From a virus (taxonomy: Duplodnaviria; Heunggongvirae; Uroviricota; Caudoviricetes): a stretch of 64,000 nt of DNA. Both the position numbers and the translations under genes were made by a program. How positions within the stretch are numbered: position 1 is the first letter of the stretch; each line of letters opens with the position of its first letter. The stretch is taken from IMG/VR virus record IMGVR_UViG_2932604667_000002, positions 17,261-81,260 of that record. One strand, written 5' to 3'. Positions 16,797 to 62,042 of the stretch are shown here, in pieces. A model generated the notes under the pieces. That model saw only the letters and a list, made by a program, of their open reading frames with translations. It had not been told where the DNA came from and did not search any database.

Positions 16797-17352
16797 CGAC
16801 GATCTCCCCTTCCACGATGTTCTCCAGCGCGCCGCTCGCGCCCAGGTACTCGGCATGCAGTCTCGCGGCCAGGTCCGCGATCGTCGCGCCGTGCTCGACT
16901 TGGATCGGCCCGCCGCCGGGGCCGGACACCTCGATCGGCTGCCGGCGGCCCCACCGGTCGTGAAACCGCCTGGCGAGGAGTTCCAGGCCGACGCGCCCGT
17001 CCGCGGGTGCGATCTGTTCCTCGGTCTCTACGGTGCCGTCCGGCCTGGTCCGGGTAACCCGCTTGACGACGTAGCCGCCGATCGCTGCCTTCATCACCGA
17101 CCCGGCGACGACCCGCACCTCGACCTCGTCACGCGCGCGGTAGAGATCCTGGCGAAACTGGCGTTTCCATGCGGGGGCTCCGGAGGCTTCGGCTTCTCGG
17201 AGCCAGCGGTAGAGGGTGGATTCGTCGATACCAGCGGCTCCGGCGGCGCCTTCGAAGGTGGCGCCCGCTCGTACGGCCGCGACGATCCGTTCGTGGACGT
17301 CGGCCGTGAGCTTCGTGCGCCGTCCATGGCGCTGTGCCGGTGGGGCTGTCAT
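16786..17352 (-). CDS. helix-turn-helix DNA-binding protein (188 aa)
   Basis: HTH GATFEGAAGAAGIDESTLYRWL (transposase/terminase-small-subunit-like N-domain); no SD; CGCGACCTTAAC motif about 30 nt upstream. Confidence 0.45.
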   Translation of the reverse strand: MTAPPAQRHGRRTKLTADVHERIVAAVRAGATFEGAAGAAGIDESTLYRWLREAEASGAPAWKRQFRQDLYRARDEVEVRVVAGSVMKAAIGGYVVKRVTRTRPDGTVETEEQIAPADGRVGLELLARRFHDRWGRRQPIEVSGPGGGPIQVEHGATIADLAARLHAEYLGASGALENIVEGEIVDGE

Positions 17353-17379
17353 AGCCCGGTAAAGGTAGGTGGCCCGGAC

Positions 17380-17396
17380 CGTTAAGGTCGCGGGCC
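17380..17396 (-). promoter_or_regulatory. second motif class TTAAGGTCGCG (CGCGACCTTAA on coding strand)
   Basis: one of four copies (17380, 29383, 30972, 53205), upstream of SD-less genes. Confidence 0.35.
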
Positions 17397-17416
17397 ACCG
17401 TTGGAACTGGGAGGGC

Positions 17417-17755
17417 TCAGCCGATCGGGCGGAGGGCGGTCGGGTAGCGGTCACCGCCCTTGCAGGGGCCGGACGCGGCCGGGTGGACGGGGATCATCAT
17501 CTTCTCGTTGAGGGCCATGTCGTGGTTGCAGCCGCTGCAGGTGCCGTACCGGGCGAGGCGCTGCCAGGGCTCGTCGGGGCTGTAGCGGAAGACGACGTGC
17601 GCGTCTTTGGGGATGTCGCACCCTTCCTGCCAGGTGCGGCGGACGCCGGCCCAGTTGTCGACGGCCTGGGCGTTCGTCGGGTCAATCTTGTTGGGGTTGT
17701 AGTCGATCACGTCGCGAGCGGCCTCGTCGGTGAAGCGGACGGCGTACTCGGTCAT
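17417..17755 (-). CDS. hypothetical protein (112 aa)
   Basis: AAGGAGAG SD. Confidence 0.55.
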   Translation of the reverse strand: MTEYAVRFTDEAARDVIDYNPNKIDPTNAQAVDNWAGVRRTWQEGCDIPKDAHVVFRYSPDEPWQRLARYGTCSGCNHDMALNEKMMIPVHPAASGPCKGGDRYPTALRPIG

Positions 17756-28137: not shown

Positions 28138-28658
28138 GCGGGTGGGGCGCCTTCCTGTAGGAGGTGACGCAGCTCGTCCTGGGCCTGCGGTGGCAGGCCG
28201 GTCGGCTCGTCTTGGGCGGCCCATTCGGCGGCGTTGACGTGCGTCTCGCTGATGCGGACACGGGAGATGTGCGCGCCGGCGGCCAGCCCTGGGATCCCGT
28301 GGATCCAGGTGGCGGCCTGGGTGGCGATCAGGTGGGCGACCGCTTCGACCGTGGGCCAGGCGGCGCCTGGCCAGTCCTCTCCGAACACGAACACCTTCGA
28401 ATGGGCGGATCGGAGTGCGGAGACGAGGGGGTCTCGGTGGCCGAGCATAGCCCCGTGATCAAGGTGGGCGTCGATCCATCCGCGCATCGCTGCTTTGAAG
28501 AGGCCGAACTCGGCGACGGTGTAGTCCTCGGACAGGCCGGGGGCCAAGATGGTTACCTCTGCCCACCAGGAGTGGCCGTGCAGGCTCTGGCACTTGCCGC
28601 CGAGGTGGGGCAGGCGGTGGGCGGTCTCGAAGTTGTGCCGGCAGGTGACGGACGTCAT
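28134..28658 (-). CDS. queD: 6-carboxy-5,6,7,8-tetrahydropterin synthase
   Basis: CQSLHGHSW (CxxxHGH). Confidence 0.7.
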   Translation of the reverse strand: MTSVTCRHNFETAHRLPHLGGKCQSLHGHSWWAEVTILAPGLSEDYTVAEFGLFKAAMRGWIDAHLDHGAMLGHRDPLVSALRSAHSKVFVFGEDWPGAAWPTVEAVAHLIATQAATWIHGIPGLAAGAHISRVRISETHVNAAEWAAQDEPTGLPPQAQDELRHLLQEGAPPA

Positions 28659-40899: not shown

Positions 40900-41916
40900 G
40901 TGCGCACCACCCCAGCCAACGGGTTGACGACGCAGCAAATCCTGCAGATGATCCGGCCGCGACTCAGGCGAGTCATCATCGTCCTGAACAACAAGGGCGG
41001 TGCGGGAAAGACGACCACCGTCGCGAATTTTGCCTGCACGGTGGCAGCAGCGCTGAAGAAGAGCGGCTCGAAGAAACGAATCCTGGCTATGGACCTTGAC
41101 CCGCAGGGCAACCTGGGGCTCGACCTCGGCTACCAGGGAAGCGAGGGTGACGACAAGGGGGCGTCGATCCTCCAGGTCATCGACGGCGTCGGGAATCTGA
41201 ACGTGATCCGGGACGTACGGCCCAACCTCGACGTGATCCCTGGTGGCCGGTTGCTCAAGCCCATCGCCATTCGGATGTATGCGGCCGCGCAGGCCGACCC
41301 GCGTCGTGAGGTACGGCTGGCGCTCGCGCAGGCCATCGCTGAGATCGCCGGCGACTACGAGTGGATCATCATCGACTGCCCGCCCAACGTCGCGGAGCTT
41401 CAGGACCTGGCCGCGATCATCGGCCGCTACGTCCTGATCCCGGTCACCTTCGACGAGGGTTCGATTCAGGGCATGCAGGGTGTCGGCGAGGTCTTCGATA
41501 AGGCGGCCGACCTCAACGACGAGCTCATTCCGCTGGCGGCCCTGCTGTTCGGCTTCGACCGGCAGAACAACTTCCGGAAAATTCGGGACGAAAGCGGAGA
41601 AGTCGTCGGGGTCAGGGAGATCGGACTCCTGGCCAGCACCCGCGCCGAGGTTCAGTCGCTGCTCGCCGACCTCGAAATTCCAGTCCTGGAGACGGTGGTG
41701 ACGCGCGCGGTCAACGTCGCCAAGCACTGCCGCAAGCGCGGGCTGAGCTATGCCGAGCTCGCTGACGCCACGGCGTCGGAGAACTGGCGCGAGGTGGCCA
41801 AGCAGAGCGGCATCGCGAACATCTCCGCGGACTCCGCCGAGGTGTCGGCCTATGAGATGGAGCAGGTCGCGGCAGAGGTGATCCGGCTCGTCATGAAGCA
41901 GGAGGCAGCGGCATGA
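40900..41916 (+). CDS. parA: ParA/Soj-family partition ATPase (GTG start)
   Basis: deviant Walker A NNKGGAGKTT; GAGGAGACGAA SD. Confidence 0.85.
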   Translation: MRTTPANGLTTQQILQMIRPRLRRVIIVLNNKGGAGKTTTVANFACTVAAALKKSGSKKRILAMDLDPQGNLGLDLGYQGSEGDDKGASILQVIDGVGNLNVIRDVRPNLDVIPGGRLLKPIAIRMYAAAQADPRREVRLALAQAIAEIAGDYEWIIIDCPPNVAELQDLAAIIGRYVLIPVTFDEGSIQGMQGVGEVFDKAADLNDELIPLAALLFGFDRQNNFRKIRDESGEVVGVREIGLLASTRAEVQSLLADLEIPVLETVVTRAVNVAKHCRKRGLSYAELADATASENWREVAKQSGIANISADSAEVSAYEMEQVAAEVIRLVMKQEAAA

Positions 41917-45000: not shown

Positions 45001-46218
45001 ATGCTCCTCCTGGCACTGGCCACCGCCTGGCTCATCATGCGGACCCTGCGCGAGATGGGCTACACCTTCGACGACGTGGCCAGCATCCCCAAGCGGATCA
45101 AGGGGGAGGACGTCGACCCGGGTGAGCCCAAGCTCACCTGGGAGACGGTCAAGGAGCGGCGCCACAGCGGCCAGTGGGACTGGCCGCTGTGGCTCGGTTC
45201 CTGGCTGATCGCCGGTCCCACCCGAGCAGGACACGCCCGCTACAAGGCGCGCAAGGCGGCACGGGAGGCCAAGGCCGCCGAGGAGGCCGCTGGCGCCGAG
45301 CAGGCCCAGCCCACCTCCGAGCAGACCGAGAAGCCCCCGACCGCCGCCGACGCCCCGAAGCAGCCGGAAGACGAGACCGGAGCCGACGGCAAGCAGCGGC
45401 GCTGGTGGAAGAAGGAGACCCCCGAGGCCGACCGGCCGGCGGGGGAGTCGTCTCCTGAGCCGCCGCTCGCTGGTGTCGGCGAGTGGGAGGTGGCCCGCGA
45501 GGGCTGGACCCCTGGCCCTGACGTCCCGGCCCACAACCCTGACGACGACATCGTCGACGCCGAAATCGTGCCTCCCCGCGCGATCACTGAAGGAGAAGAC
45601 CCTATGGCCAACGACCTTGCTGCCCCGCAGACTCCGGCTCCGCCCGTACCTGGCCCGCCTCCCGGTCCGGCTCCTGCTCCGCTGCCTGGCCCGGCTCCGA
45701 CCCCGCTGCCGACGCCCGTGACCGCGGCCAGCCCGATCCAGCCGGGCCTGCCCGCGGGCACCGTCGTGTTCGGCATTTGTGATGACTCCGGCAAGGAGAT
45801 CGGGGTTGTCACCAACGACGGCCAGGTCAAGTACCACAACCCGGCCGACGAGCCCGGCGCTGGGCAGGTCCCCTCGACCACTCCCCAGGCTGCCGTGGCC
45901 GCCAGTGTGCCCGCTCAGCGCAGGGGAGGTGAGCTTGCTTTGGACTCCGTCCGCGCGATCGACGACCGCCTCGTACAGGTCCTGTCGGCCTGTGATGCAG
46001 CGGTCATGAACCTGATCGAGCAGCTCCACGGTGAGGGCATCACCGGGTCGATCTCCACCAGCTACATGGCGGTCCTGGAGGGCCTCTCCGCCACGCTCGG
46101 GCTGCGGCAGGGGGCTCGCCAGGAGCTGGAGCGGCACAGCAATCCGATCCAGGAGGCCGTCACCTCCGCGACGCCGAGCAACGTCGCGAACAACACCAGC
46201 TTCTACCAGCACCAGTAA
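45001..46218 (+). CDS. membrane-anchored proline-rich protein (405 aa), Spd-like
   Basis: N-terminal TM, PAPxP repeats. Confidence 0.5.
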   Translation: MLLLALATAWLIMRTLREMGYTFDDVASIPKRIKGEDVDPGEPKLTWETVKERRHSGQWDWPLWLGSWLIAGPTRAGHARYKARKAAREAKAAEEAAGAEQAQPTSEQTEKPPTAADAPKQPEDETGADGKQRRWWKKETPEADRPAGESSPEPPLAGVGEWEVAREGWTPGPDVPAHNPDDDIVDAEIVPPRAITEGEDPMANDLAAPQTPAPPVPGPPPGPAPAPLPGPAPTPLPTPVTAASPIQPGLPAGTVVFGICDDSGKEIGVVTNDGQVKYHNPADEPGAGQVPSTTPQAAVAASVPAQRRGGELALDSVRAIDDRLVQVLSACDAAVMNLIEQLHGEGITGSISTSYMAVLEGLSATLGLRQGARQELERHSNPIQEAVTSATPSNVANNTSFYQHQ

Positions 46219-53216: not shown

Positions 53217-53420
53217 GGGGCGGCGCCCGCGAGCCTGGCTCCTCAGCTTGATCACGAGGTCATGCACTGCCCGTTCAAGGGCGTAGACATCCGGGTGCCG
53301 GTCTTCGCCGACCCACTCGGGGAGCTGCAGGAAGTTCGCCATCGCGTCCTCGTTGGACTGGGCCTCAACCAGCCGCGCCACGTACAGGTATGCCGCGCGC
53401 TTGGCCTGCTGCTGGTTCAC
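53208..53420 (-). CDS. hypothetical protein (70 aa, GTG)
   Basis: AAGGAAG SD; GTGA overlap. Confidence 0.5.
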   Translation of the reverse strand: MNQQQAKRAAYLYVARLVEAQSNEDAMANFLQLPEWVGEDRHPDVYALERAVHDLVIKLRSQARGRRPAT

Positions 53421-54304
53421 CCCGCGTCTTCCTTCTGAAGGTTGGCGGGGATCCGCTCGTGCCGGGTGGCGTACGCCGGGCCGCCGGCAGCGGCGGATCC
53501 GGCGTCGAGCACGGGCGCTGTCCTGGCTCCTGCCTTCGCGAGCCGGGCGGAGGCCGACCGGGTCACGAGCGGCGCCTTGGCGAACACCACTCCGCCGGGG
53601 GCGCGCTTGAAGTACTGGCCAGGGTGCTCGAGGTCATGGATGTCGACCTTCTCGGCGTCCGCGCCGAGGACCATGGTGGCAGTCAACTGGGACCGGGTGC
53701 GGAGCAGGTAGCGCGCGGTGAACTTCTCCCCGGTTGCGCCCCACGTGCGGGGGATGGCGACGGTCCCGTAGCGGGTGGCGAAGACGAGCGACACCGCGGC
53801 CTCCTGTCCGCGGTGGACGACTGAGCCGAGGTGGGCCGCGAGCTCGGCGCGGTCGGAGTGGACGGCGAGCGCGGCGGCCTCCGGCAGGACGTAGACGATC
53901 GCGGGCCTGTCGCAGGACGGGGTGAGCTTGTCCCGGCGGGCGAGGGTGTTGAGTCGGTGCTCGATGATATTGGTCAGTGCGGCCACCTGCCGGGCGGCCT
54001 CGTCGATGGTCGTTGCCGCCCAGTCGAGGCGGGGCATCCACGGCTGGAGGTGCCAGCCGTGGTGCAGCGGGTCGGCGCCCCAGATCATGGTGTCGGCGCA
54101 CCGGTGCAGGTTGGCGAGGGCGACGTAGACCATGTTGGTCAGGCCGCCGCCGCTTTCGGCGTCCATGAACCAGTGCTGGTGTAGCAGCGGCTGCTCATCG
54201 CGGGTGCCATCGTTGCGGGTGCCCGTGAGGAGCGGCTGGGTGATGCTGTGCGGCAGGTGCTGCTCGATGTCGCCGCCGAACAGGATCGCGCCGGTCGGGT
54301 TCAC
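53417..54304 (-). CDS. hypothetical protein (295 aa)
   Basis: GTGA overlap; replication-module context. Confidence 0.5.
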   Translation of the reverse strand: MNPTGAILFGGDIEQHLPHSITQPLLTGTRNDGTRDEQPLLHQHWFMDAESGGGLTNMVYVALANLHRCADTMIWGADPLHHGWHLQPWMPRLDWAATTIDEAARQVAALTNIIEHRLNTLARRDKLTPSCDRPAIVYVLPEAAALAVHSDRAELAAHLGSVVHRGQEAAVSLVFATRYGTVAIPRTWGATGEKFTARYLLRTRSQLTATMVLGADAEKVDIHDLEHPGQYFKRAPGGVVFAKAPLVTRSASARLAKAGARTAPVLDAGSAAAGGPAYATRHERIPANLQKEDAG

Positions 54305-54660
54305 TTCGCGTCCTCCTCCGACTCGGTGGCGTCCTCGATCTCCGCCAAGACCTTGCGGCCGCAGTCGAAGCGGGTTGCGTCCACCAGGGTGGCGCCGGGG
54401 ATGGAAGCCAGGGCCACCCAGCCCTCGGCCAGGGTGCGAAGCCGGGCGAGAGCGGCCTCGGCGAAGGCCAGGCGCTCATCGCGGGTCGGCTGGAGCGGGG
54501 CGACGGTCTCGCCCATCTCGACCCGGTGCGCGCGGTGGGCGGTCCGCTGCTTCCGGATGGTCTGGGTGCGGTCGGCCTTCCACTTCCCGCACATGCAGAC
54601 CAGACCGGAGCCGTCGCGCCCGTAGAAGCGGCGGGCGAGGTGCTGGCGCGTATTGGTCAT
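54301..54660 (-). CDS. hypothetical protein (119 aa)
   Basis: CMCGKW; ORF in operon. Confidence 0.5.
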   Translation of the reverse strand: MTNTRQHLARRFYGRDGSGLVCMCGKWKADRTQTIRKQRTAHRAHRVEMGETVAPLQPTRDERLAFAEAALARLRTLAEGWVALASIPGATLVDATRFDCGRKVLAEIEDATESEEDAK

Positions 54661-54680
54661 CTGGGATGTCTCCTTGGTGG

Positions 54681-54839
54681 TCAGCGTGAGGAGTCCGCGA
54701 TGGCGCCGCGTCGGGCGTCCCCGCGGCTGCGGCGCCGGCGGGGTCGGGAGTCGTGCCGTCCGGCGGCGTTGCTGCGGCGCAGCTCGGCGAGCCGGGTACC
54801 GGTCGTCTCACGGTGTGCCTGGGTGGTGCGGCGGGCCAT
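54681..54839 (-). CDS. small arginine-rich basic protein (52 aa; ARM-like)
   Basis: first gene after cassette 54858; AGGAGG SD; MARRTTQAHRETTGTRLAELRR...RPRRRRSRGDARRG. Confidence 0.45.
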   Translation of the reverse strand: MARRTTQAHRETTGTRLAELRRSNAAGRHDSRPRRRRSRGDARRGAIADSSR

Positions 54840-54857
54840 GGTGGTCCTCCTGCGATG

Positions 54858-54912
54858 GTCGGGTCGCTCTCCCAACGAACCTGATAGTACCGGTATTTAG
54901 GGCCGGTGGCGC
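54858..54912 (-). promoter_or_regulatory. promoter/leader-hairpin cassette
   Basis: core GTACCGGTATTTAG; upstream of ARM-like gene. Confidence 0.6.
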
Positions 54913-54974
54913 CCCCTGGCGGGGGTTCTTGTCGTTGAGGTTTTCCGGTGGGCAGGGGCAGGCCCTGGCCGCGG

Positions 54975-55742
54975 TCACCAGCCCGCGCGGGTCCGCCGGT
55001 CCGGGCCGGTGATTTGCACGACGGTGATCTGCTGGCTGATCCGGGAGATGATCCGCTCGTCGTACAGCCGCTCGAGTTCGGCCGGGCCGAGGTTCGTCGT
55101 GATGATCAGCCGCTTGCCCCGTCCGAGCCGGGGGGAGAACAGGTCGCAGAGCTCGCGCTGGACGAACTCGGTGGCGGCTCCGCGCTCAAGGTCGCGGTTG
55201 GCGCCCAGGTCGTCTACGAGCAGGTCCTGGACTCGCGCCGCGCCGTCGCGGACCTTCCACGCCGGTTCTGGTCCGCCGTCGGGCAGGAGCGCGTCCAGGT
55301 AGGACTTCTCCTTCCACGCCTTCACGGTGCGGCCCTGCTCGGCGAAGTGCCTGAGCAGGGCGAACGCCACGTGCGTCTTGCCGACGCCCGTGGCTCCGGA
55401 CAGCAGCAGCGTGCGGCCGTTCGGGTCCTCGGCCCACGCCCGGATCCGGGCGACGTGCTGGTGGCGCGGGTCGAGGGCATCCAGCGACGCCGTGGAGTAG
55501 TCCTCGTACGGCCAGGACGCCAGCAGCTTCTCCCAGCCCTGCGACGACGTCCGCGCCTGGAGCGCTGACACCTCGGCCCGTACCTGCTCGCGGTCCGGCT
55601 CGTCGTCGACCGCGTGCAGGTGCCCGCCACGTTCCCGGGTGATCCGGTCGCTCATCTCGCGTATCCGGGCCAGGCCCGAGGTCGTGCGCCCCTCGGCGCC
55701 CGGCTGCTCCCCGAGGACGTCACCGATGGTCATGTCACTCAC
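54975..55742 (-). CDS. DnaC/IstB-like AAA+ helicase loader (GTG)
   Basis: LLLSGATGVGKTHVAFAL Walker A, LLVDDLG Walker B; GTGA overlap with initiator gene. Confidence 0.7.
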   Translation of the reverse strand: MSDMTIGDVLGEQPGAEGRTTSGLARIREMSDRITRERGGHLHAVDDEPDREQVRAEVSALQARTSSQGWEKLLASWPYEDYSTASLDALDPRHQHVARIRAWAEDPNGRTLLLSGATGVGKTHVAFALLRHFAEQGRTVKAWKEKSYLDALLPDGGPEPAWKVRDGAARVQDLLVDDLGANRDLERGAATEFVQRELCDLFSPRLGRGKRLIITTNLGPAELERLYDERIISRISQQITVVQITGPDRRTRAGW

Positions 55743-57415
55743 TGCGCATCTCCTGCAACGCTGGGCCAGTCAGCCCACAGGTCGTCGTTCTCGGTTTCGT
55801 CGGAGGGTCCGCCCCAGTCGGGCGCGGACCCCTGGGAGCTGCCGGCGTGCTTGGCCGCCCACGCGGCCCAGTCGCCGCCCGAGCTCTGCTTCGCCGACCC
55901 GGCGGTGTCGGCCTCGCCAGGTGCATCGGCGCCGCGCTCGGCCGCCCACGCATCCCACGCCGCCGACGTCGACCCGTCGTGCCAGCCCTGGTTCGTGTAG
56001 GCCGTGCGCTGGGTCTGGGCCTGCCCGCCCAGCGCGCCGTGCAGCGCCCGCATGAGCAGCCACTGCGGCGGGACCAGCTCGGCCCGCCCGGCTGCGGCGA
56101 TGCTCTGGAGCGCCTCCCGCACCGACACCGGGGTGGCCGGGTTCTCGGCGGCCATCATCGGCGCCAGCAGGCCCTCGACCAGGGTGTCGTGGGTGCTGGT
56201 GCGGTCCGGGATCGGGCCGACCTTCGCGCACATGTCCAGCCACCAGGTCGCCAGCCGCTCAGCGGCGACGAGGGTCTCCTGCGGGGCCGCGTCAGCGAGC
56301 CGGGCCGGGCGTCGGCCGGCGTAGCGCTCGGCCTTGGTCTGCTCGCTCAGCATCCAGTTTTCCCAGGTCTGGCCCCACAGGGACTTCTTGCCGTCCTTCG
56401 TGTCGGCCTTGTCCCACCAGAAATTGCAGAACCGCATGTGCTCACGGTCGAGGTTCAGCGCCGGGGCGTGCTCGGCAGCCCAGGCCCGCATCTCGTCCAG
56501 GAGCGGGAAGTTCTCCGGCAGCGGGATGCGCGGCCGCCGCTGGCGGGACTTCCGGGAGGACTTCCCGCCCTCCCCGCCGCCGGTTGGCGCTTTGGCATCG
56601 CCAACAGCGTCCGCGTCCCGGTCCGCTTGGTCGTCGTCGATGTCGCGATGCCCAGACTCCAACCCGGGGACGAGGGTCAGGTGGGGCTGGCCGGGCTCCT
56701 CGTGTGCGCGCGCATGCGCGCCCACTACACCCCGAAGGGGTGTAGTGGGGGTACCGAAGTGAGAGGTACTGAAGGGGTCTTGTGGAGTGGACCCTTCCGC
56801 GTCCTCCAGTGGACCCTTTCCTTCGGATGGGTCTGCTGCGCTGGACCCTTCGGGCGAGATTGGGTCTGCTGAGTTGGACCCATCTTCCTGTGATGGGTCT
56901 GCTTGGCTGGACCCTTCCTGATGGGTCTGCTTGGCTGGACCCTTCTCGGATGGGTCTGCTGTAGTGGACTCTTCCGAGGTCTTGCCGTCGACCCCGTCGA
57001 TGTAGTTTTTGACGTCCTCGGCCGTCGGGATCGCGGGCACGCCGGCGAACCACTCGGCCCCCGGGCAGATGTCGCGGATGCCCTTGGCGATCTTCTGGGG
57101 GTCGGGGGCGTACAGGGTGGCGTCCCCGGCGGCCGGGAACGCCTTGTAGACCGTGCGGTGGCCGCGGTAGGCCCGTTCGGTCACCAGGACGTAGCCCATG
57201 GACTGCAGGTCGGTGAGGATGGCGGCGGCGCGGGCCTTCTTGACTCCGGCCCAGGCGCGGATGGCGGCCTGGCCCGGGAGCCCGAGTCGGGTCTCGTGGT
57301 CCGCGCTGTCGCAGATCTTCATGAGGGCGAGCTTGTGGGCGGGCGTGAAGTTGATTCCGCTCGGGTGCGGGCCGATGGGCAGGTACCCGGCGACGATCAT
57401 CAGGTGGGCGCTCAT
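55739..57415 (-). CDS. replication initiator (558 aa) with internal iterons
   Basis: N-terminal wHTH-like domain; central acidic repeat region encoded by tandem DNA repeats 56760-56990; followed by DnaC-like loader (lambda O/P-like layout). Confidence 0.55.
   Translation of the reverse strand: MSAHLMIVAGYLPIGPHPSGINFTPAHKLALMKICDSADHETRLGLPGQAAIRAWAGVKKARAAAILTDLQSMGYVLVTERAYRGHRTVYKAFPAAGDATLYAPDPQKIAKGIRDICPGAEWFAGVPAIPTAEDVKNYIDGVDGKTSEESTTADPSEKGPAKQTHQEGSSQADPSQEDGSNSADPISPEGSSAADPSEGKGPLEDAEGSTPQDPFSTSHFGTPTTPLRGVVGAHARAHEEPGQPHLTLVPGLESGHRDIDDDQADRDADAVGDAKAPTGGGEGGKSSRKSRQRRPRIPLPENFPLLDEMRAWAAEHAPALNLDREHMRFCNFWWDKADTKDGKKSLWGQTWENWMLSEQTKAERYAGRRPARLADAAPQETLVAAERLATWWLDMCAKVGPIPDRTSTHDTLVEGLLAPMMAAENPATPVSVREALQSIAAAGRAELVPPQWLLMRALHGALGGQAQTQRTAYTNQGWHDGSTSAAWDAWAAERGADAPGEADTAGSAKQSSGGDWAAWAAKHAGSSQGSAPDWGGPSDETENDDLWADWPSVAGDAQ
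56760..56990. repeat. about 7 tandem ~27-30-bp iterons inside initiator gene
   Basis: unit TGGACCCTTC-N-GATGGGTCTGCTG; each unit has GGACCC/GGGTCT dyad symmetry. Confidence 0.6.
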
Positions 57416-57827
57416 GAGGCCACCGCCAGCGCGCTGTGTGCACGGCCGGTCACGGCGCGGTGAGATCGGGGGGCGACGAGGAACTGTCGCGACGACACAT
57501 CGGTACCGGTTTGCGTGTCGCGGGTTGCGACCCAGCGCGCAACAGGTACCCTGAAGCCAAGCTTCATCGGGTTACTCGCTTTCCTAGCGATGGAGCGGCT
57601 CGAGAAGGGACCGCTAATCCCCTCGGGCCAGACACGGCGGCTGTTCGCCTTCGCCCGGTTCGCACCCGGGCGCGGACGAGCCGCCGTCGTCGTTTCTATG
57701 GACTTTTCATGGTGCTGCCTCTTCCGAGGCGTGAGGGAACCGTACCGCGCCTGTGGGGACTTTGTATCCCGACACACCGACCTTGGGGGCGTAGATCCGG
57801 TCGCAGTGGGTACCTCGTGACGTCGCA
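57416..57827. other. ~410-bp non-coding, lower-GC region upstream of initiator gene
   Basis: no credible ORF; contains GGTACCGGT, GTTGCG...CGCAAC palindromes and AGCAGGTATTTAGCC core-like box. Confidence 0.35.
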
Positions 57828-58232
57828 TCACACCTCACCGCCGTGCGTCGTGTGGGCTATGAGCAGGTATTTAGCCAAGTTCAGGCGGGCGAGCAGGTCC
57901 TCTTCGCCGGGGCCGGCAAGCGCCAGCGCCTTGTTGACGGCGATCTCGATGTCGGTCGGGTGCTGGCGTAGGTGCCGCCAGCCGTCGCCGTCGCAGTAGC
58001 GGGGGAAGCGGGACACCTCCGCGAGCCACTGCGCCGCCTGGTCCAGCTCCTCCGGCGTCGGCTGCCGGGAGGGGTCGTTGACGTAACCCGCGCTGGTCAG
58101 GGCCTTCAAGAACGCCCACAGGGCCGTGTCGAGGCGCTCCATGACCGGGACCGCCTCCAGGGTGCCGTCCATGAACGCGGTGTGCGCGGCAGCGAACGCC
58201 TCGTCCAGGGCGGGAGTGTGTGCGTCGGTCAT
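57828..58232 (-). CDS. hypothetical protein (134 aa)
   Basis: ATG overlapping exonuclease stop; C-terminal part of the spurious 411-aa ORF in the track. Confidence 0.5.
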   Translation of the reverse strand: MTDAHTPALDEAFAAAHTAFMDGTLEAVPVMERLDTALWAFLKALTSAGYVNDPSRQPTPEELDQAAQWLAEVSRFPRYCDGDGWRHLRQHPTDIEIAVNKALALAGPGEEDLLARLNLAKYLLIAHTTHGGEV

Positions 58233-59572
58233 GCGGCGGCCTCCATGGCGGTCTGCTTGGCGACGCGGACCGGCCGGACTTCGGTCCACACGTCGACTCG
58301 GAAGGGAAGCTCGATCTTGTCGAGCCAGGTCTGGAACTCCCCGCGGAGCGCGGGTGGCGAGGTCTCCCATTGCTGTCGCGCCTTGGCGACGGCGAGGAAG
58401 TAGGCCTTGTGGTCGGGCATCCTGCGGCGCCGCTCGGTGATGACCCACTTGCCGTAGGTGCCGTCGGGCAGTCCGGCGACGAGCGGGGCGGTGGCTTCGT
58501 ACTCGCGGACGGCTTCCTTGCGGTTTTCCTTCCACTCCCAGGTCAACGACGCCGCCCACTCGATCTTGGCGGCGTCGGGGTCTGGGCCGAGGATGGTGTA
58601 GCCCTGGGGGGAGCGGCCGGCGGCCTTGGCGGCGGGGATGTTCCAGCAGTGCGAGCGGAACGGGCACCGGTCGCAGATCGGGTCCCTGTCGGGGCCGCGG
58701 CCGTCGCGGGGCAGGTCGACGCCGAGTTCGATCGCGGCGGACAGCGCCTGGAGCTCGCCGAGGGCGGAGCGGGCGAAGTCCTCGTCGTAGGGCTCGGTGA
58801 AGACCTCGTTGTCGCCGTCCACGCGCGAGATGTAGTCGATCTCGATCCAGTCGACCGGTCGGCCTGTCGCGCGCATCCCGTAGCCGTAGACGGCCGCCTG
58901 CTTCCAGTGCTCGATCCGAGGTCCGTAGATGCCGATGTGCTCCCAGGCGTAGGCGCCGGCGGATTTGCGGTCGCCGACGATGGCGAGGATCTGGTCGTAG
59001 CGGTCGATGTGGCCGATGGCGTCCAGGCCGGGGATCGCAACCGGCAGCTCGTGCTGGACCCACTTGTAGAAGTGGGCGTCAGCGAGACGGCCCAGGTGGT
59101 GGAAGGCGGTGCCGAGGTCGGCGGCGGAGGTGTCGACCGGGTCCCGGACCAGGTCAAGCGGCGGATTGAGCCGGTATTGAACAGCGCGACGGCAGCGGCC
59201 GGAGTCGGAGGGGCGGACGCCCGTGCCGCTGGTCGCCTGCTCGCGCCGGTTGATCTCGTCCAAGTAGCGCTTGACGTCGTCACGGAACCGAGGCCGCGCG
59301 GCGAGCACCTGCTCGGCGAGCTTGTAGGCCGGGTGGGGCGCGTAGCGCTTGCAGCCGGTGTCCTTGTTGCCGCCGCCGCCCTTGGCGCCGGCGTGTTCGG
59401 TCAGGGGAGCCCCGCACATGCAGGGCGTGCCGCCGGGGGTCGGCTGGTACCCGGATTCGATGACGGTTCGGGCCGCGTTGATCGGAAGGCTCATGGGGCC
59501 TCCCACAGACTTTCGGGCATGCGTGTCTCCTGCTCGGCTGCCACCGGATCGCTCGGCCGGTGGTGTCGACAT
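58229..59572 (-). CDS. Cas4/RecB-family (PD-D/ExK) exonuclease (447 aa)
   Basis: C-terminal CDRCPFRSHCW Cys cluster typical of Cas4/RecB nucleases; recT nearby. Confidence 0.55.
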   Translation of the reverse strand: MSTPPAERSGGSRAGDTHARKSVGGPMSLPINAARTVIESGYQPTPGGTPCMCGAPLTEHAGAKGGGGNKDTGCKRYAPHPAYKLAEQVLAARPRFRDDVKRYLDEINRREQATSGTGVRPSDSGRCRRAVQYRLNPPLDLVRDPVDTSAADLGTAFHHLGRLADAHFYKWVQHELPVAIPGLDAIGHIDRYDQILAIVGDRKSAGAYAWEHIGIYGPRIEHWKQAAVYGYGMRATGRPVDWIEIDYISRVDGDNEVFTEPYDEDFARSALGELQALSAAIELGVDLPRDGRGPDRDPICDRCPFRSHCWNIPAAKAAGRSPQGYTILGPDPDAAKIEWAASLTWEWKENRKEAVREYEATAPLVAGLPDGTYGKWVITERRRRMPDHKAYFLAVAKARQQWETSPPALRGEFQTWLDKIELPFRVDVWTEVRPVRVAKQTAMEAAA

Positions 59573-60553: not shown

Positions 60554-62003
60554 TCAGGACACGTGTGTGGCGTCCTCAGCGGGGCGACCACACCCCGGAG
60601 CGGCACACTCGGCGCCGTCCTCGCCCTCCACGAACAGGTGCAGCGGTGACCCCTCCGCCTCCGCCTCCGCCTCCGCCGCGACGCGGCCCAGCAGCACCGG
60701 CACCGGAGCGATCAGCATCCGACCGGCCTCCCGGTACGCCTGCGCCTCCTCCGCTCTGCCGGACTTGGCGAGCAGGTCGGCGACTGCGTCCCGCATCGGC
60801 CCGACGATCGCGACCATCTCGGCGGCAGTCGCGTCGTCGAGGTTCTTTCTGAGCTGCCGGACGACGATGTTGCCGTACGGCTTGCCGATCGCCTCAGAGA
60901 TCATGGCGATCTCGTCGCGCATCCACTGGGCCAGCTCATCGGCGGTCGGCGTCTGCTCGCTGGCACCATCCGGCGTCGCGTCCTGCCCGGCCTCCTGGAC
61001 GTCGTCGGGGGCGACCTCCACCGTGACCTCCGCCGTGGTCTCCGTCGTGGTGTCCGGTGCGGGACTCGTGCGGGTCCGCATGCTGGGGACCTGGACGGCC
61101 GTCACCGCCGACCGGTACTTGTCCTGGCGGGCACGGACCCCATCGGCGATCTGCTCGCGGGCGGCCGTCGCGTCGGCCTGCATCATCTCCTCGTTGGTGT
61201 AGATCCCCGACAGCCGCTCCGGGCACGCCTTGCGCAGGACGAGCGCTTCGGCGCACTTCCCGGGCATCAGGGCCTGCCCCTTCTCCCACATCTCCGACAG
61301 CTCCATGGCGATGCTGCCGTCAGGGTTGTAGACCTTCTCCCGGTACCACTTGTCGTTCTTGGTCTGCTTCCACTCGCCCTTGGCGGGGAAGTACGGCGCG
61401 TACATCTTCCAGTTCGCGATTGCAGTGGTGACGGCGTCGTTACCGTAGGGGTCGTAGTGCTCGAGGACGGCCTTGGCCGCGCCCGGGTGGTCGCGGATGT
61501 CGGGCCACTGCTCCCACCAGATGCGCCGCATGACCAGCTCGCCGGTGCGGGGGTCCTCCACGGCCCGCCAGGAGGAGTCGTCGTCGTCGTCCCCGGTCCA
61601 GTAGATCGTTGCGCCGCCCTTGATGCGGCCGGTGTCGTTGGCGAGGATCCGGAAGCCGTCGATGCCGGTCTGAATCGTGAAACTCGCGTTGTCTCCGTCG
61701 CCGCGCTTGATCAGGTAGATCTGCCGCAGGAACGGGTTGAGACCCCTGGACGTGCATGCCTCAATGAACACCTCCATGTGAGGCCACGCCTGGCGGTCCA
61801 TCGGGTCGAAGTTGACGATGCCCTTGAACGCCTCCAGTTGGCGGGCGGTCATGTCGCCTATCCCCTGGTCGCGGCGAAACACCAAGACGCCACCGGAGGC
61901 GGGGGTGAAGGCGACCGCGCTCTCGGTGCGTTCGATGCCTTCGTCGTCGGGGATGGGGGCGTTCGGCTCGCGGGTCTGGACGGGCGATGCGTGATCGGCT
62001 GTC
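60554..62003 (-). CDS. recT: RecT-family single-strand annealing protein
   Basis: EVFIEACTSRGLNPFLRQIYLI...FTIQTGIDGFRILA matches the RecT core; AAAAAGGAGA SD directly after hairpin 62043; track start 62011 is a GTG. Confidence 0.7.
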
Positions 62004-62042
62004 ATGCACACTCTCCTTTTTAGGCCCGGTCGCTCTCCGGGC

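Follow-up and report, generated by a model that had tools for sequence, protein, structure and literature searches.

In phage lambda, the replication origin lies in the middle of gene O, where four 19-bp inverted-repeat iterons are followed by an AT-rich tract, and Stx phages carry six iterons and 13 more residues in O (PMC7466680; see also PMC6022878). An actinomycete replicon, as described in PMC2974207, combines iterons with a DNA-binding protein, Rep1, and a second replication protein, the helicase rep2. For temperate actinophages that persist as plasmids, pZL12 is cited as the sole example outside cluster A, and the cluster A phages have RepA or RNA-based origins, with no iterons found there (PMC7157519). 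Here, we describe a locus in a 64,000-nt stretch of a Caudoviricetes virus record (IMG/VR IMGVR_UViG_2932604667_000002, positions 17,261 to 81,260; hereafter, the window). This locus is probably the vegetative or plasmid-type replication origin of a circular phage-plasmid-like replicon of ~151.7 kb, embedded in its own initiator gene. That the initiator gene contains the origin and precedes a loader gene is the textbook principle for lambda and the lambdoid phages; here, the proteins are unrelated to those and uncharacterised. The most interesting feature is the family-wide reading of a palindromic iteron in three frames, together with a signature at synonymous sites.

The 558-aa initiator is identical to the hypothetical protein ACFY05_32065 of Microtetraspora fusca. 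The GC contents at third codon positions (GC3) of the initiator and loader open reading frames (ORFs) were 0.87 and 0.93, respectively, as expected of real genes at the 69% GC of the window. An earlier note on this DNA had described about seven tandem repeats of 27-30 bp with internal dyad symmetry inside the initiator ORF, where they would encode an acidic linker. The symmetry was borne out, with five exact copies of GGGTC-N10-GACCC and one copy with a single mismatch, and the count and length were roughly right: there are six full copies and one half, with a period of 28-33 nt (Table 1). Tandem Repeats Finder (TRF) reported an array of 28-33 bp period at 56826-56976, and a repeat search returned six 27-nt copies starting at 56771, 56825, 56858, 56891, 56919 and 56948, with start-to-start spacings of 54, 33, 33, 28 and 29 nt. 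The register used previously (TGGACCC...GGGTCTGCTG) describes the same array from the other arm. All five exact matches to GGGTC-N10-GACCC in the 64 kb fell within 56775-56942 and none elsewhere, compared with 0.35 expected, and none of 100 shuffles reached five. The array sits in the linker-coding part of the initiator ORF, and the linker is indeed acidic: amino acids 146-217 contain 16 D+E vs 3 K+R and are predicted to be disordered (pLDDT <50). The 27-mers at 56891 and 56919 are identical, yet they are translated as EGSSQADPS and EKGPAKQTHQ, respectively, because neither 28 nor 29 nt, the spacings in this part of the array, is divisible by three and the two copies therefore fall in different frames.

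To find relatives of the initiator, we used an exhaustive HMMER search in place of a word-indexed protein search, which had returned only the query among 8000 candidates and was probably swamped by the low-complexity linker. The exhaustive profile search retrieved 16 proteins of 329-411 aa that have the N-terminal 230 residues in common at ~36-49% identity, and whose linkers alternate KGP, EGS and ERV motifs. We examined the DNA of seven close homologues (~40-49% amino-acid identity), and each of them had 4-7 copies of the GGGTC-N10-GACCC dyad at the position corresponding to that in the window gene. With the window gene included, GGGTC began at codon position 1 in 26 cases, at position 2 in six and at position 3 in 15, so that the peptide reads EGS, KGP or ERV; these are the three translations of RAAGGGTCC. 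The iteron arms were common across these lineages, whereas the 8-10-nt spacers were lineage-specific.

A scan of one genome per species in bacteria and archaea yielded 98 further loci, of which we kept 80. All of the latter belonged to Streptomycetaceae (mostly Streptomyces and Kitasatospora) and encoded initiators of ~300-330 aa. In this clade the dyad is GGGTTCC-N6-GGAACCC, often as a perfect 20-bp palindrome; it occupies the same place in the gene and retains the outer GGGT-N12-ACCC frame of the window dyad. There were 3.3 copies per gene on average, with at least three copies in 65 of the 80 genes, and the density was 3.57/kb in the gene vs 0.014/kb in the 8-kb flanks. All three codon positions were again in use (133, 67 and 64 cases). 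Across all 88 loci, the array lay in the initiator's own linker.

We then compared synonymous sites in 24 distinct, ungapped Streptomyces orthologues, all equally long and sharing 84% nucleotide identity on average. Averaged over pairs, identity at third codon positions reached 0.986 in the iteron arms, as against 0.713 for the N-domain and 0.634 for the C-terminal part, and the arms differed from non-iteron third positions with p = 1e-8 (Mann-Whitney). The repeats are under selection as DNA, not as peptide, because orthologues cannot come to share invariant synonymous sites by slippage or concerted evolution.

In gene sense, the last iteron gives way at once to a G-poor tract of lower GC content, which is a candidate DNA-unwinding element. 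Its coding-strand G fraction was 0.07 vs 0.34 for the gene. By nearest-neighbour duplex instability, the 40-mer at 56752-56791, with 23 nt in the tract and the remainder running into the last iteron, ranked at the 99.2nd percentile for the window. A stretch starting CTTC(G)GTACC came after the last iteron in all eight close family members, and coding-strand G after the last iteron was 3-15% vs 28-35% for the gene. The lowest-GC 40-mer of the gene began a median of +1 nt (close group) or -6 nt (distant group) after the last iteron. Among the 24 Streptomyces orthologues, a 62-nt pyrimidine-rich tract after the last iteron had a third-position identity of 0.984. In the window, a perfect palindrome also extends into the end of the tract. 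At the equivalent place, the closest relative (L082) carries a palindrome with 10-bp arms, which shares the TTC loop (gene sense) and differs in sequence, and the other relatives have none; because only the closest relative has it in common, we did not treat the palindrome as a family feature.

The initiator begins with MSAHLMIVAGY, a start common to its homologues. In an AlphaFold model built from a 17-sequence alignment, its N-domain was predicted with pLDDT 89-97 over amino acids 1-100 and 121-140, dipping to 70-78 at 101-120, and had the topology H-H-H-strand-strand; the domain is conserved in 17 homologues. Amino acids 149-303, which the origin encodes, had no structure in the model, and the C-terminal regions were helical with low confidence. 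A Pfam scan of amino acids 1-145 gave only a weak HTH_36 match of 20.3 bits, below the cut-off, at an E-value limit of 10, where HMMER filters drop most matches above ~0.1; there was no O (Phage_rep_O), P, RepA_N or replisome-organiser match in the Pfam scan of the initiator, nor did PHROGs and NCBIfam hold a family for it. For the middle domain, the top fold matches were DnaT, Foldseek with the middle-domain model returned nothing and a profile search of Protein Data Bank (PDB) sequences gave only a spurious MAK16 match. A further protein that shares this domain (P0026) weakly matched Phage_rep_org_N at 2e-4. The acidic C-terminal tail carries, as a separate observation, an in-frame 28-nt direct repeat (55843-55870 and 55930-55957, 87 nt apart) that encodes a tryptophan-rich motif twice, as AAWDAWAAE and DWAAWAAKH, and that may be a partner-binding motif.

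The initiator stop and the GTG start of the loader gene overlap as GTGA at 55739-55742, as the earlier note had stated in assigning the second gene to the AAA+ class; the NCBI call starts 9 nt further in, at an ATG, giving 252 aa. The assignment was confirmed by Pfam matches above cut-off to IstB_IS21 (27.7 bits, cut-off 24.1) and Bac_DnaA (27.8 bits, cut-off 23), and the protein also matched PHROG 50 (DnaC-like loader) at 1e-24, whereas all NCBIfam matches were under their equivalog cut-offs. With a Walker A motif of GATGVGKT and a Walker B motif of LLVDD, it has the AAA+ core and the profile matches of the DnaC/DnaI/IstB clade, and its putative function is DnaB loading. A loader homologue followed the initiator in all four relatives with a complete downstream gene (L083, L084, L087 and L088), and in the last of these a DnaB helicase gene came next.

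Table 1. Positions of the features of the origin region and of selected neighbouring genes in the window (strand dot, no strand assigned).
Feature	Position	Strand	Basis or remark
ParA-like gene (partition ATPase)	40900-41916	+	
706-aa protein, weak similarity to Streptomyces plasmid TraB	46237-48357	+	
FtsK-like 295-aa protein (second translocase-like)	53417-54304	-	
DnaC/IstB-type AAA+ helicase-loader gene (putative), 255 aa from GTG	54975-55742	-	Pfam, PHROG, Walker motifs
Initiator gene, 558 aa	55739-57415	-	ORF, GC3, exact database match
DnaT-like three-helix domain, aa 297-367, candidate single-stranded DNA or primosome-contact domain	56315-56527	-	
Perfect 13-bp-arm palindrome CCCACTACACCCC-GAA-GGGGTGTAGTGGG (+ strand; gene-sense loop TTC)	56721-56749	.	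overlaps end of G-poor tract
G-poor, lower-GC tract right after last iteron (gene sense), candidate DNA-unwinding element	56735-56774	.	
Iteron array, six 20-bp dyads GGGTC-N10-GACCC and lone half-site	56775-56971	.	
Individual dyads	56775-56794, 56829-56848, 56862-56881, 56895-56914, 56923-56942, 56952-56971		last: one mismatch
Lone right half-site	56810-56816		
N-terminal winged-helix domain, aa 1-145, presumed iteron-binding domain	56981-57415	-	AlphaFold
412-bp non-coding gap upstream of initiator, probable regulatory region	57416-57827	.	no annotated gene
PD-(D/E)XK exonuclease gene	58229-59572	-	
RecT gene	60554-62011	-	

From these features, we propose the following course of initiation. 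Dimers of the initiator's N-terminal winged-helix domain would bind the six 20-bp dyads within the DNA that codes for its own disordered acidic linker, and the resulting nucleoprotein array would then destabilise the adjoining G-poor tract. The DnaT-like domain might contact the exposed single strand or the primosome, and the translationally coupled DnaC/IstB-type AAA+ protein would deliver a DnaB-type helicase, which could be the host's or be encoded elsewhere on the element.

Several points weigh against this proposal. The anatomy of the locus, the selective constraint on its DNA, the predicted domain folds and the synteny of initiator and loader are established here; which protein binds the repeats, that the tract unwinds, that helicase is loaded and that replication starts at this place, we infer. 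In its predicted fold, the N-domain resembles no proven initiator specifically: Foldseek returned generic winged-helix proteins only (MarR-type repressors and RepA_N initiators) at E 0.05-0.4. The correspondence between initiator clade and iteron type comes down to one split in the phylogeny, and the inner positions of the arms differ with no parallel change in the protein; covariation of recognition-helix residues with inner arm bases was unconvincing. The window tract is modest and less marked than those of the relatives: the 45 nt that follow the last iteron have a GC content of 0.60 vs 0.705 for the gene, and several other 40-mers in the gene and in intergenic regions were equally unstable. 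A DnaB gene was absent from the 64-kb window. Finally, it is possible that a second or the principal origin lies elsewhere on the element, because the repeat-array search covered 64 kb of its 152 kb.

The same scope bears on the idea that the repeats, although bound by the initiator, are a control element that serves autoregulation, transcriptional roadblock, initiator titration or copy-number control by handcuffing, in which case the true origin would be at some other place on the 152-kb element. Iteron copy control is established for P1 and other iteron plasmids. Plasmid iteron arrays also act in copy control (P1 iteron control is cited in PMC7157519), and only 64 of 152 kb were inspected. 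However, a G-poor, low-stability tract with invariant synonymous sites adjoins the array in every lineage, which counts against a purely controlling role because an unwinding element looks like this and titration needs none; the layout also agrees point for point with that of ori-lambda. We therefore regard a control element without origin function as unlikely. Far harder to sustain is the view that the repeats are a protein feature only, an acidic linker repeated in tandem by slippage whose likeness at the DNA level is a by-product of duplication or concerted evolution. The relatives use all three frames for the motif and the window gene two, giving unrelated peptides; the arms are kept across lineages while the spacers diverge; and the synonymous sites of the arms are invariant in the 24 orthologues (0.986 vs 0.63-0.71). 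That the region does encode a disordered, acidic, repetitive linker, and that two copies are 100% identical, as after a recent duplication, fits such an origin, but the frame and synonymous-site results largely refute it, and we give it almost no credence.

The repeats might instead be the site of another protein, that is, a clt-like locus for a TraB- or FtsK-like translocase, the centromere of a ParA system or a packaging site. In favour of this, the element encodes TraB-like, FtsK-like and ParA-like proteins, and the recognition repeat of pSVH1 TraB, which we take to be GACCCGGA, has GACCC in common with the iterons. Streptomyces TraB proteins recognise direct-repeat clt loci (PMC9513070). 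Against this stands the constant position of the array in the initiator's own linker in 88 loci, along with the form of the unit, a symmetric 20-bp dyad with fixed arm spacing that is typical of a dimeric winged-helix protein. Translocase guide sequences, by contrast, are 8-bp asymmetric words. The array lies 8-15 kb from the traB-like and parA-like genes of the window, and no TraB or ParA gene was recognised within 4 kb in three Streptomyces prophage-like loci, where ORF lists were inspected by eye and without family scans. Considered as a Streptomyces TraB clt locus, the array consists of symmetric 20-bp dyads in an initiator gene, ~8 kb from the TraB-like gene, and we rejected that assignment. 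Overall, a site for another protein seems quite improbable, and an origin within the initiator gene is the reading that we prefer.

The lambda-like reading has support in the architecture of the locus and in its probable mechanism. As in lambda, the proposed origin occupies the middle of the initiator gene, where an inter-domain linker is encoded, the iterons are four to six imperfect inverted repeats of ~19-20 bp, the order is N-domain codons, iterons, meltable tract and C-domain codons, and the next gene has a (here putative) helicase-loading function. The differences are that neither the initiator nor the loader matches the O or P families in sequence, that the initiator carries a candidate DnaT-like domain, that the tract to be melted is G-poor and pyrimidine/A-rich at 69% GC and not truly AT-rich, and that a DnaC/IstB-type AAA+ ATPase takes the place of lambda P, which is not known to belong to the AAA+ class. 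We tried the loader as a homologue of lambda P and rejected this, as it matched IstB_IS21, Bac_DnaA and PHROG 50 instead, with no P family among the matches listed. Membership of the initiator in the lambda O family was likewise rejected, since the scan of amino acids 1-145 gave HTH_36 alone, below cut-off. Thus, the lambda arrangement claimed in the earlier note holds for the dyad iterons in the linker, the low-stability tract downstream and the coupled DnaC/IstB-type gene, but as architecture only: the proteins are not O/P homologues, and "O/P-like" probably describes how the locus works, not kinship.

The locus is also like modules known from Gram-positive phages (G38P/G39P/G40P with oriL in Bacillus phage SPP1, and Listeria phage B054), in which the gene of an origin-binding "replisome organiser" directly precedes a loader gene. 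SPP1 oriL lies within gene 38, and G39P of this phage is not known to be of the AAA+ class. Among phage proteins, the window loader was best matched by the B054 "DnaC-like helicase loader" (identity ~25%), whose upstream neighbour is annotated "replication initiation protein". Unlike these modules, the window N-domain had no tblastn match in 50,697 phage records, and it had none in 72,556 plasmid records; blastn of 54400-58000 against the phage and plasmid collections also gave no match. RepA_N initiators (pSK41/pTZ2162 RepA; PDB 4pql, 4pt7 and 5kbj) were among the fold matches and have a winged-helix N-domain as well, and RepA_N plasmids have their iterons inside the rep coding sequence. Their C-terminal architecture differs from that of the window protein, and membership in RepA_N was rejected, with no Pfam match and Foldseek E values of 0.07-0.2, no better than those of MarR repressors. 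The actinomycete replicon of PMC2974207 likewise has iterons, a DNA-binding protein and a second replication protein, but the second protein there is a helicase and here a DnaC-type loader, and the window proteins had no homology in the plasmid collection.

The replicon that carries the locus was identified through the gene for ACFY05_32065, which lies on JBIAXI010000024.1 (151,757 bp). The window matched this sequence at 100% identity in two blocks whose offsets are 151,662 bp apart (window position 1 is position 134,299 and window position 45,739 is position 28,375) and therefore spans its ends. These ends share a 95-bp overlap, with the junction near 17365-17459 of the window, so the replicon is circular, or circularly assembled, at ~151.7 kb. 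It was assembled apart from the chromosome. The replication module lies within a minus-strand gene run of RecT, exonuclease, a 134-aa ORF, the 412-bp gap, initiator, loader, small ORFs and the FtsK-like 295-aa protein. The replicon also has an HNH nuclease gene, and tail Dit, lysin and single-stranded DNA-binding protein (SSB) genes lie just beyond the window; no integrase was noticed on the element, of which not every ORF was scanned. Because ParA-like, TraB-like and FtsK-like genes occur on one replicon with tail (Dit), lysin, SSB and RecT genes, its gene content marks it as a candidate conjugative phage-plasmid resembling Streptomyces pZL12, which also carries transfer genes. Like pZL12 and the extrachromosomal cluster A mycobacteriophages, it would be a temperate actinophage kept as a plasmid; unlike in those phages, its initiator N-domain is unmatched in the phage or plasmid collections.

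More tentatively, and with slightly less than even confidence, we suggest that the initiator belongs to a widespread, apparently undescribed family of initiators from actinobacterial phages, prophages and phage-plasmids, counted here as the 98 confirmed loci (one genome per species, bacteria and archaea) plus metagenomic relatives. In this family, a complete origin, consisting of palindromic 20-bp iterons with the GGGT-N12-ACCC frame and an unwinding tract, would be translated as a disordered linker in three frames, with the linker peptide largely a by-product, and the host element, a circular phage-plasmid of ~152 kb with TraB-like transfer genes of the Streptomyces type, would be only the second such type of actinophage after pZL12. 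A description of the family was not found in the literature searched, a weak negative because most subscription journals were outside the search.

For actinobacteriophages and actinomycete phage-plasmids, replication origins are almost uncharted. A sequence rule, namely a winged-helix initiator whose linker region contains GGGT-N12-ACCC dyads followed by a G-poor tract, would make direct origin prediction possible in many prophages of Streptomyces, Kitasatospora and Microtetraspora. Such compact cassettes of initiator plus origin are candidate vector replicons for genetically difficult actinomycetes. The locus is also an unusually clean natural case of a DNA element and a coding sequence on the same bases, and a 20-mer read in three frames is useful for thinking about overlapping constraints and the origin of disordered linkers.

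The 412-bp region upstream of the initiator was previously given as a 410-bp non-coding stretch of lower GC content. It is indeed a non-coding gap, but its GC content is barely lower (0.66 vs 0.69 for the window), and no role could be demonstrated for it. A sigma-70-type promoter scan of the region gave no match, and Rfam returned nothing meaningful in 54000-59000. An imperfect palindrome of ~50 bp at 57502-57550, flanked by two GGTACC sites, has the centre GGGTCGCAACCC, in which the outer iteron bases GGGT/ACCC recur with a spacing of 4 rather than 12; it may be an operator.

Around the relatives, we noted a few further features. The initiators of the Streptomycetaceae clade (L003-L081) have a cysteine-rich C-terminal motif, CPKH...CRACGT. 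Two ORFs lie upstream of the initiator in these loci, one with a GxxGxGK Walker-A-type motif and the other of ~380-400 aa; the Walker-A-type ORF in L011 (e.g. 550-2772) is about twice as long (740 aa vs 385 aa). The ORF downstream of the initiator has an N-terminus that we take to be like that of a cytosine-5 DNA methyltransferase, and no DnaC-type loader was evident in the ORF lists of these loci, inspected without family scans. In three metagenomic loci (L083, L084 and L085), a WhiB-family gene stands one or two genes upstream of the initiator, a position that it does not have in the window.

A 16-mer, GGGTCGCTCTCCCAAC (gene sense GTTGGGAGAGCGACCC), occurs in the window in 21 exact and two near copies, all in a single orientation, compared with an expectation of 0.12 copies at two or fewer mismatches. 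Its + strand coordinates are 4498, 5786, 6389, 7166, 8930, 11792, 12548, 13431, 16476, 20657, 23389, 26277, 26707, 33455, 35212, 36103, 36555, 39500, 39939, 40374 and 54861. Each copy precedes the Shine-Dalgarno sequence and start codon of some minus-strand gene by ~10-25 nt, and we take the 16-mer to resemble the start-associated sequences of cluster K mycobacteriophages, or a repeated promoter or operator.

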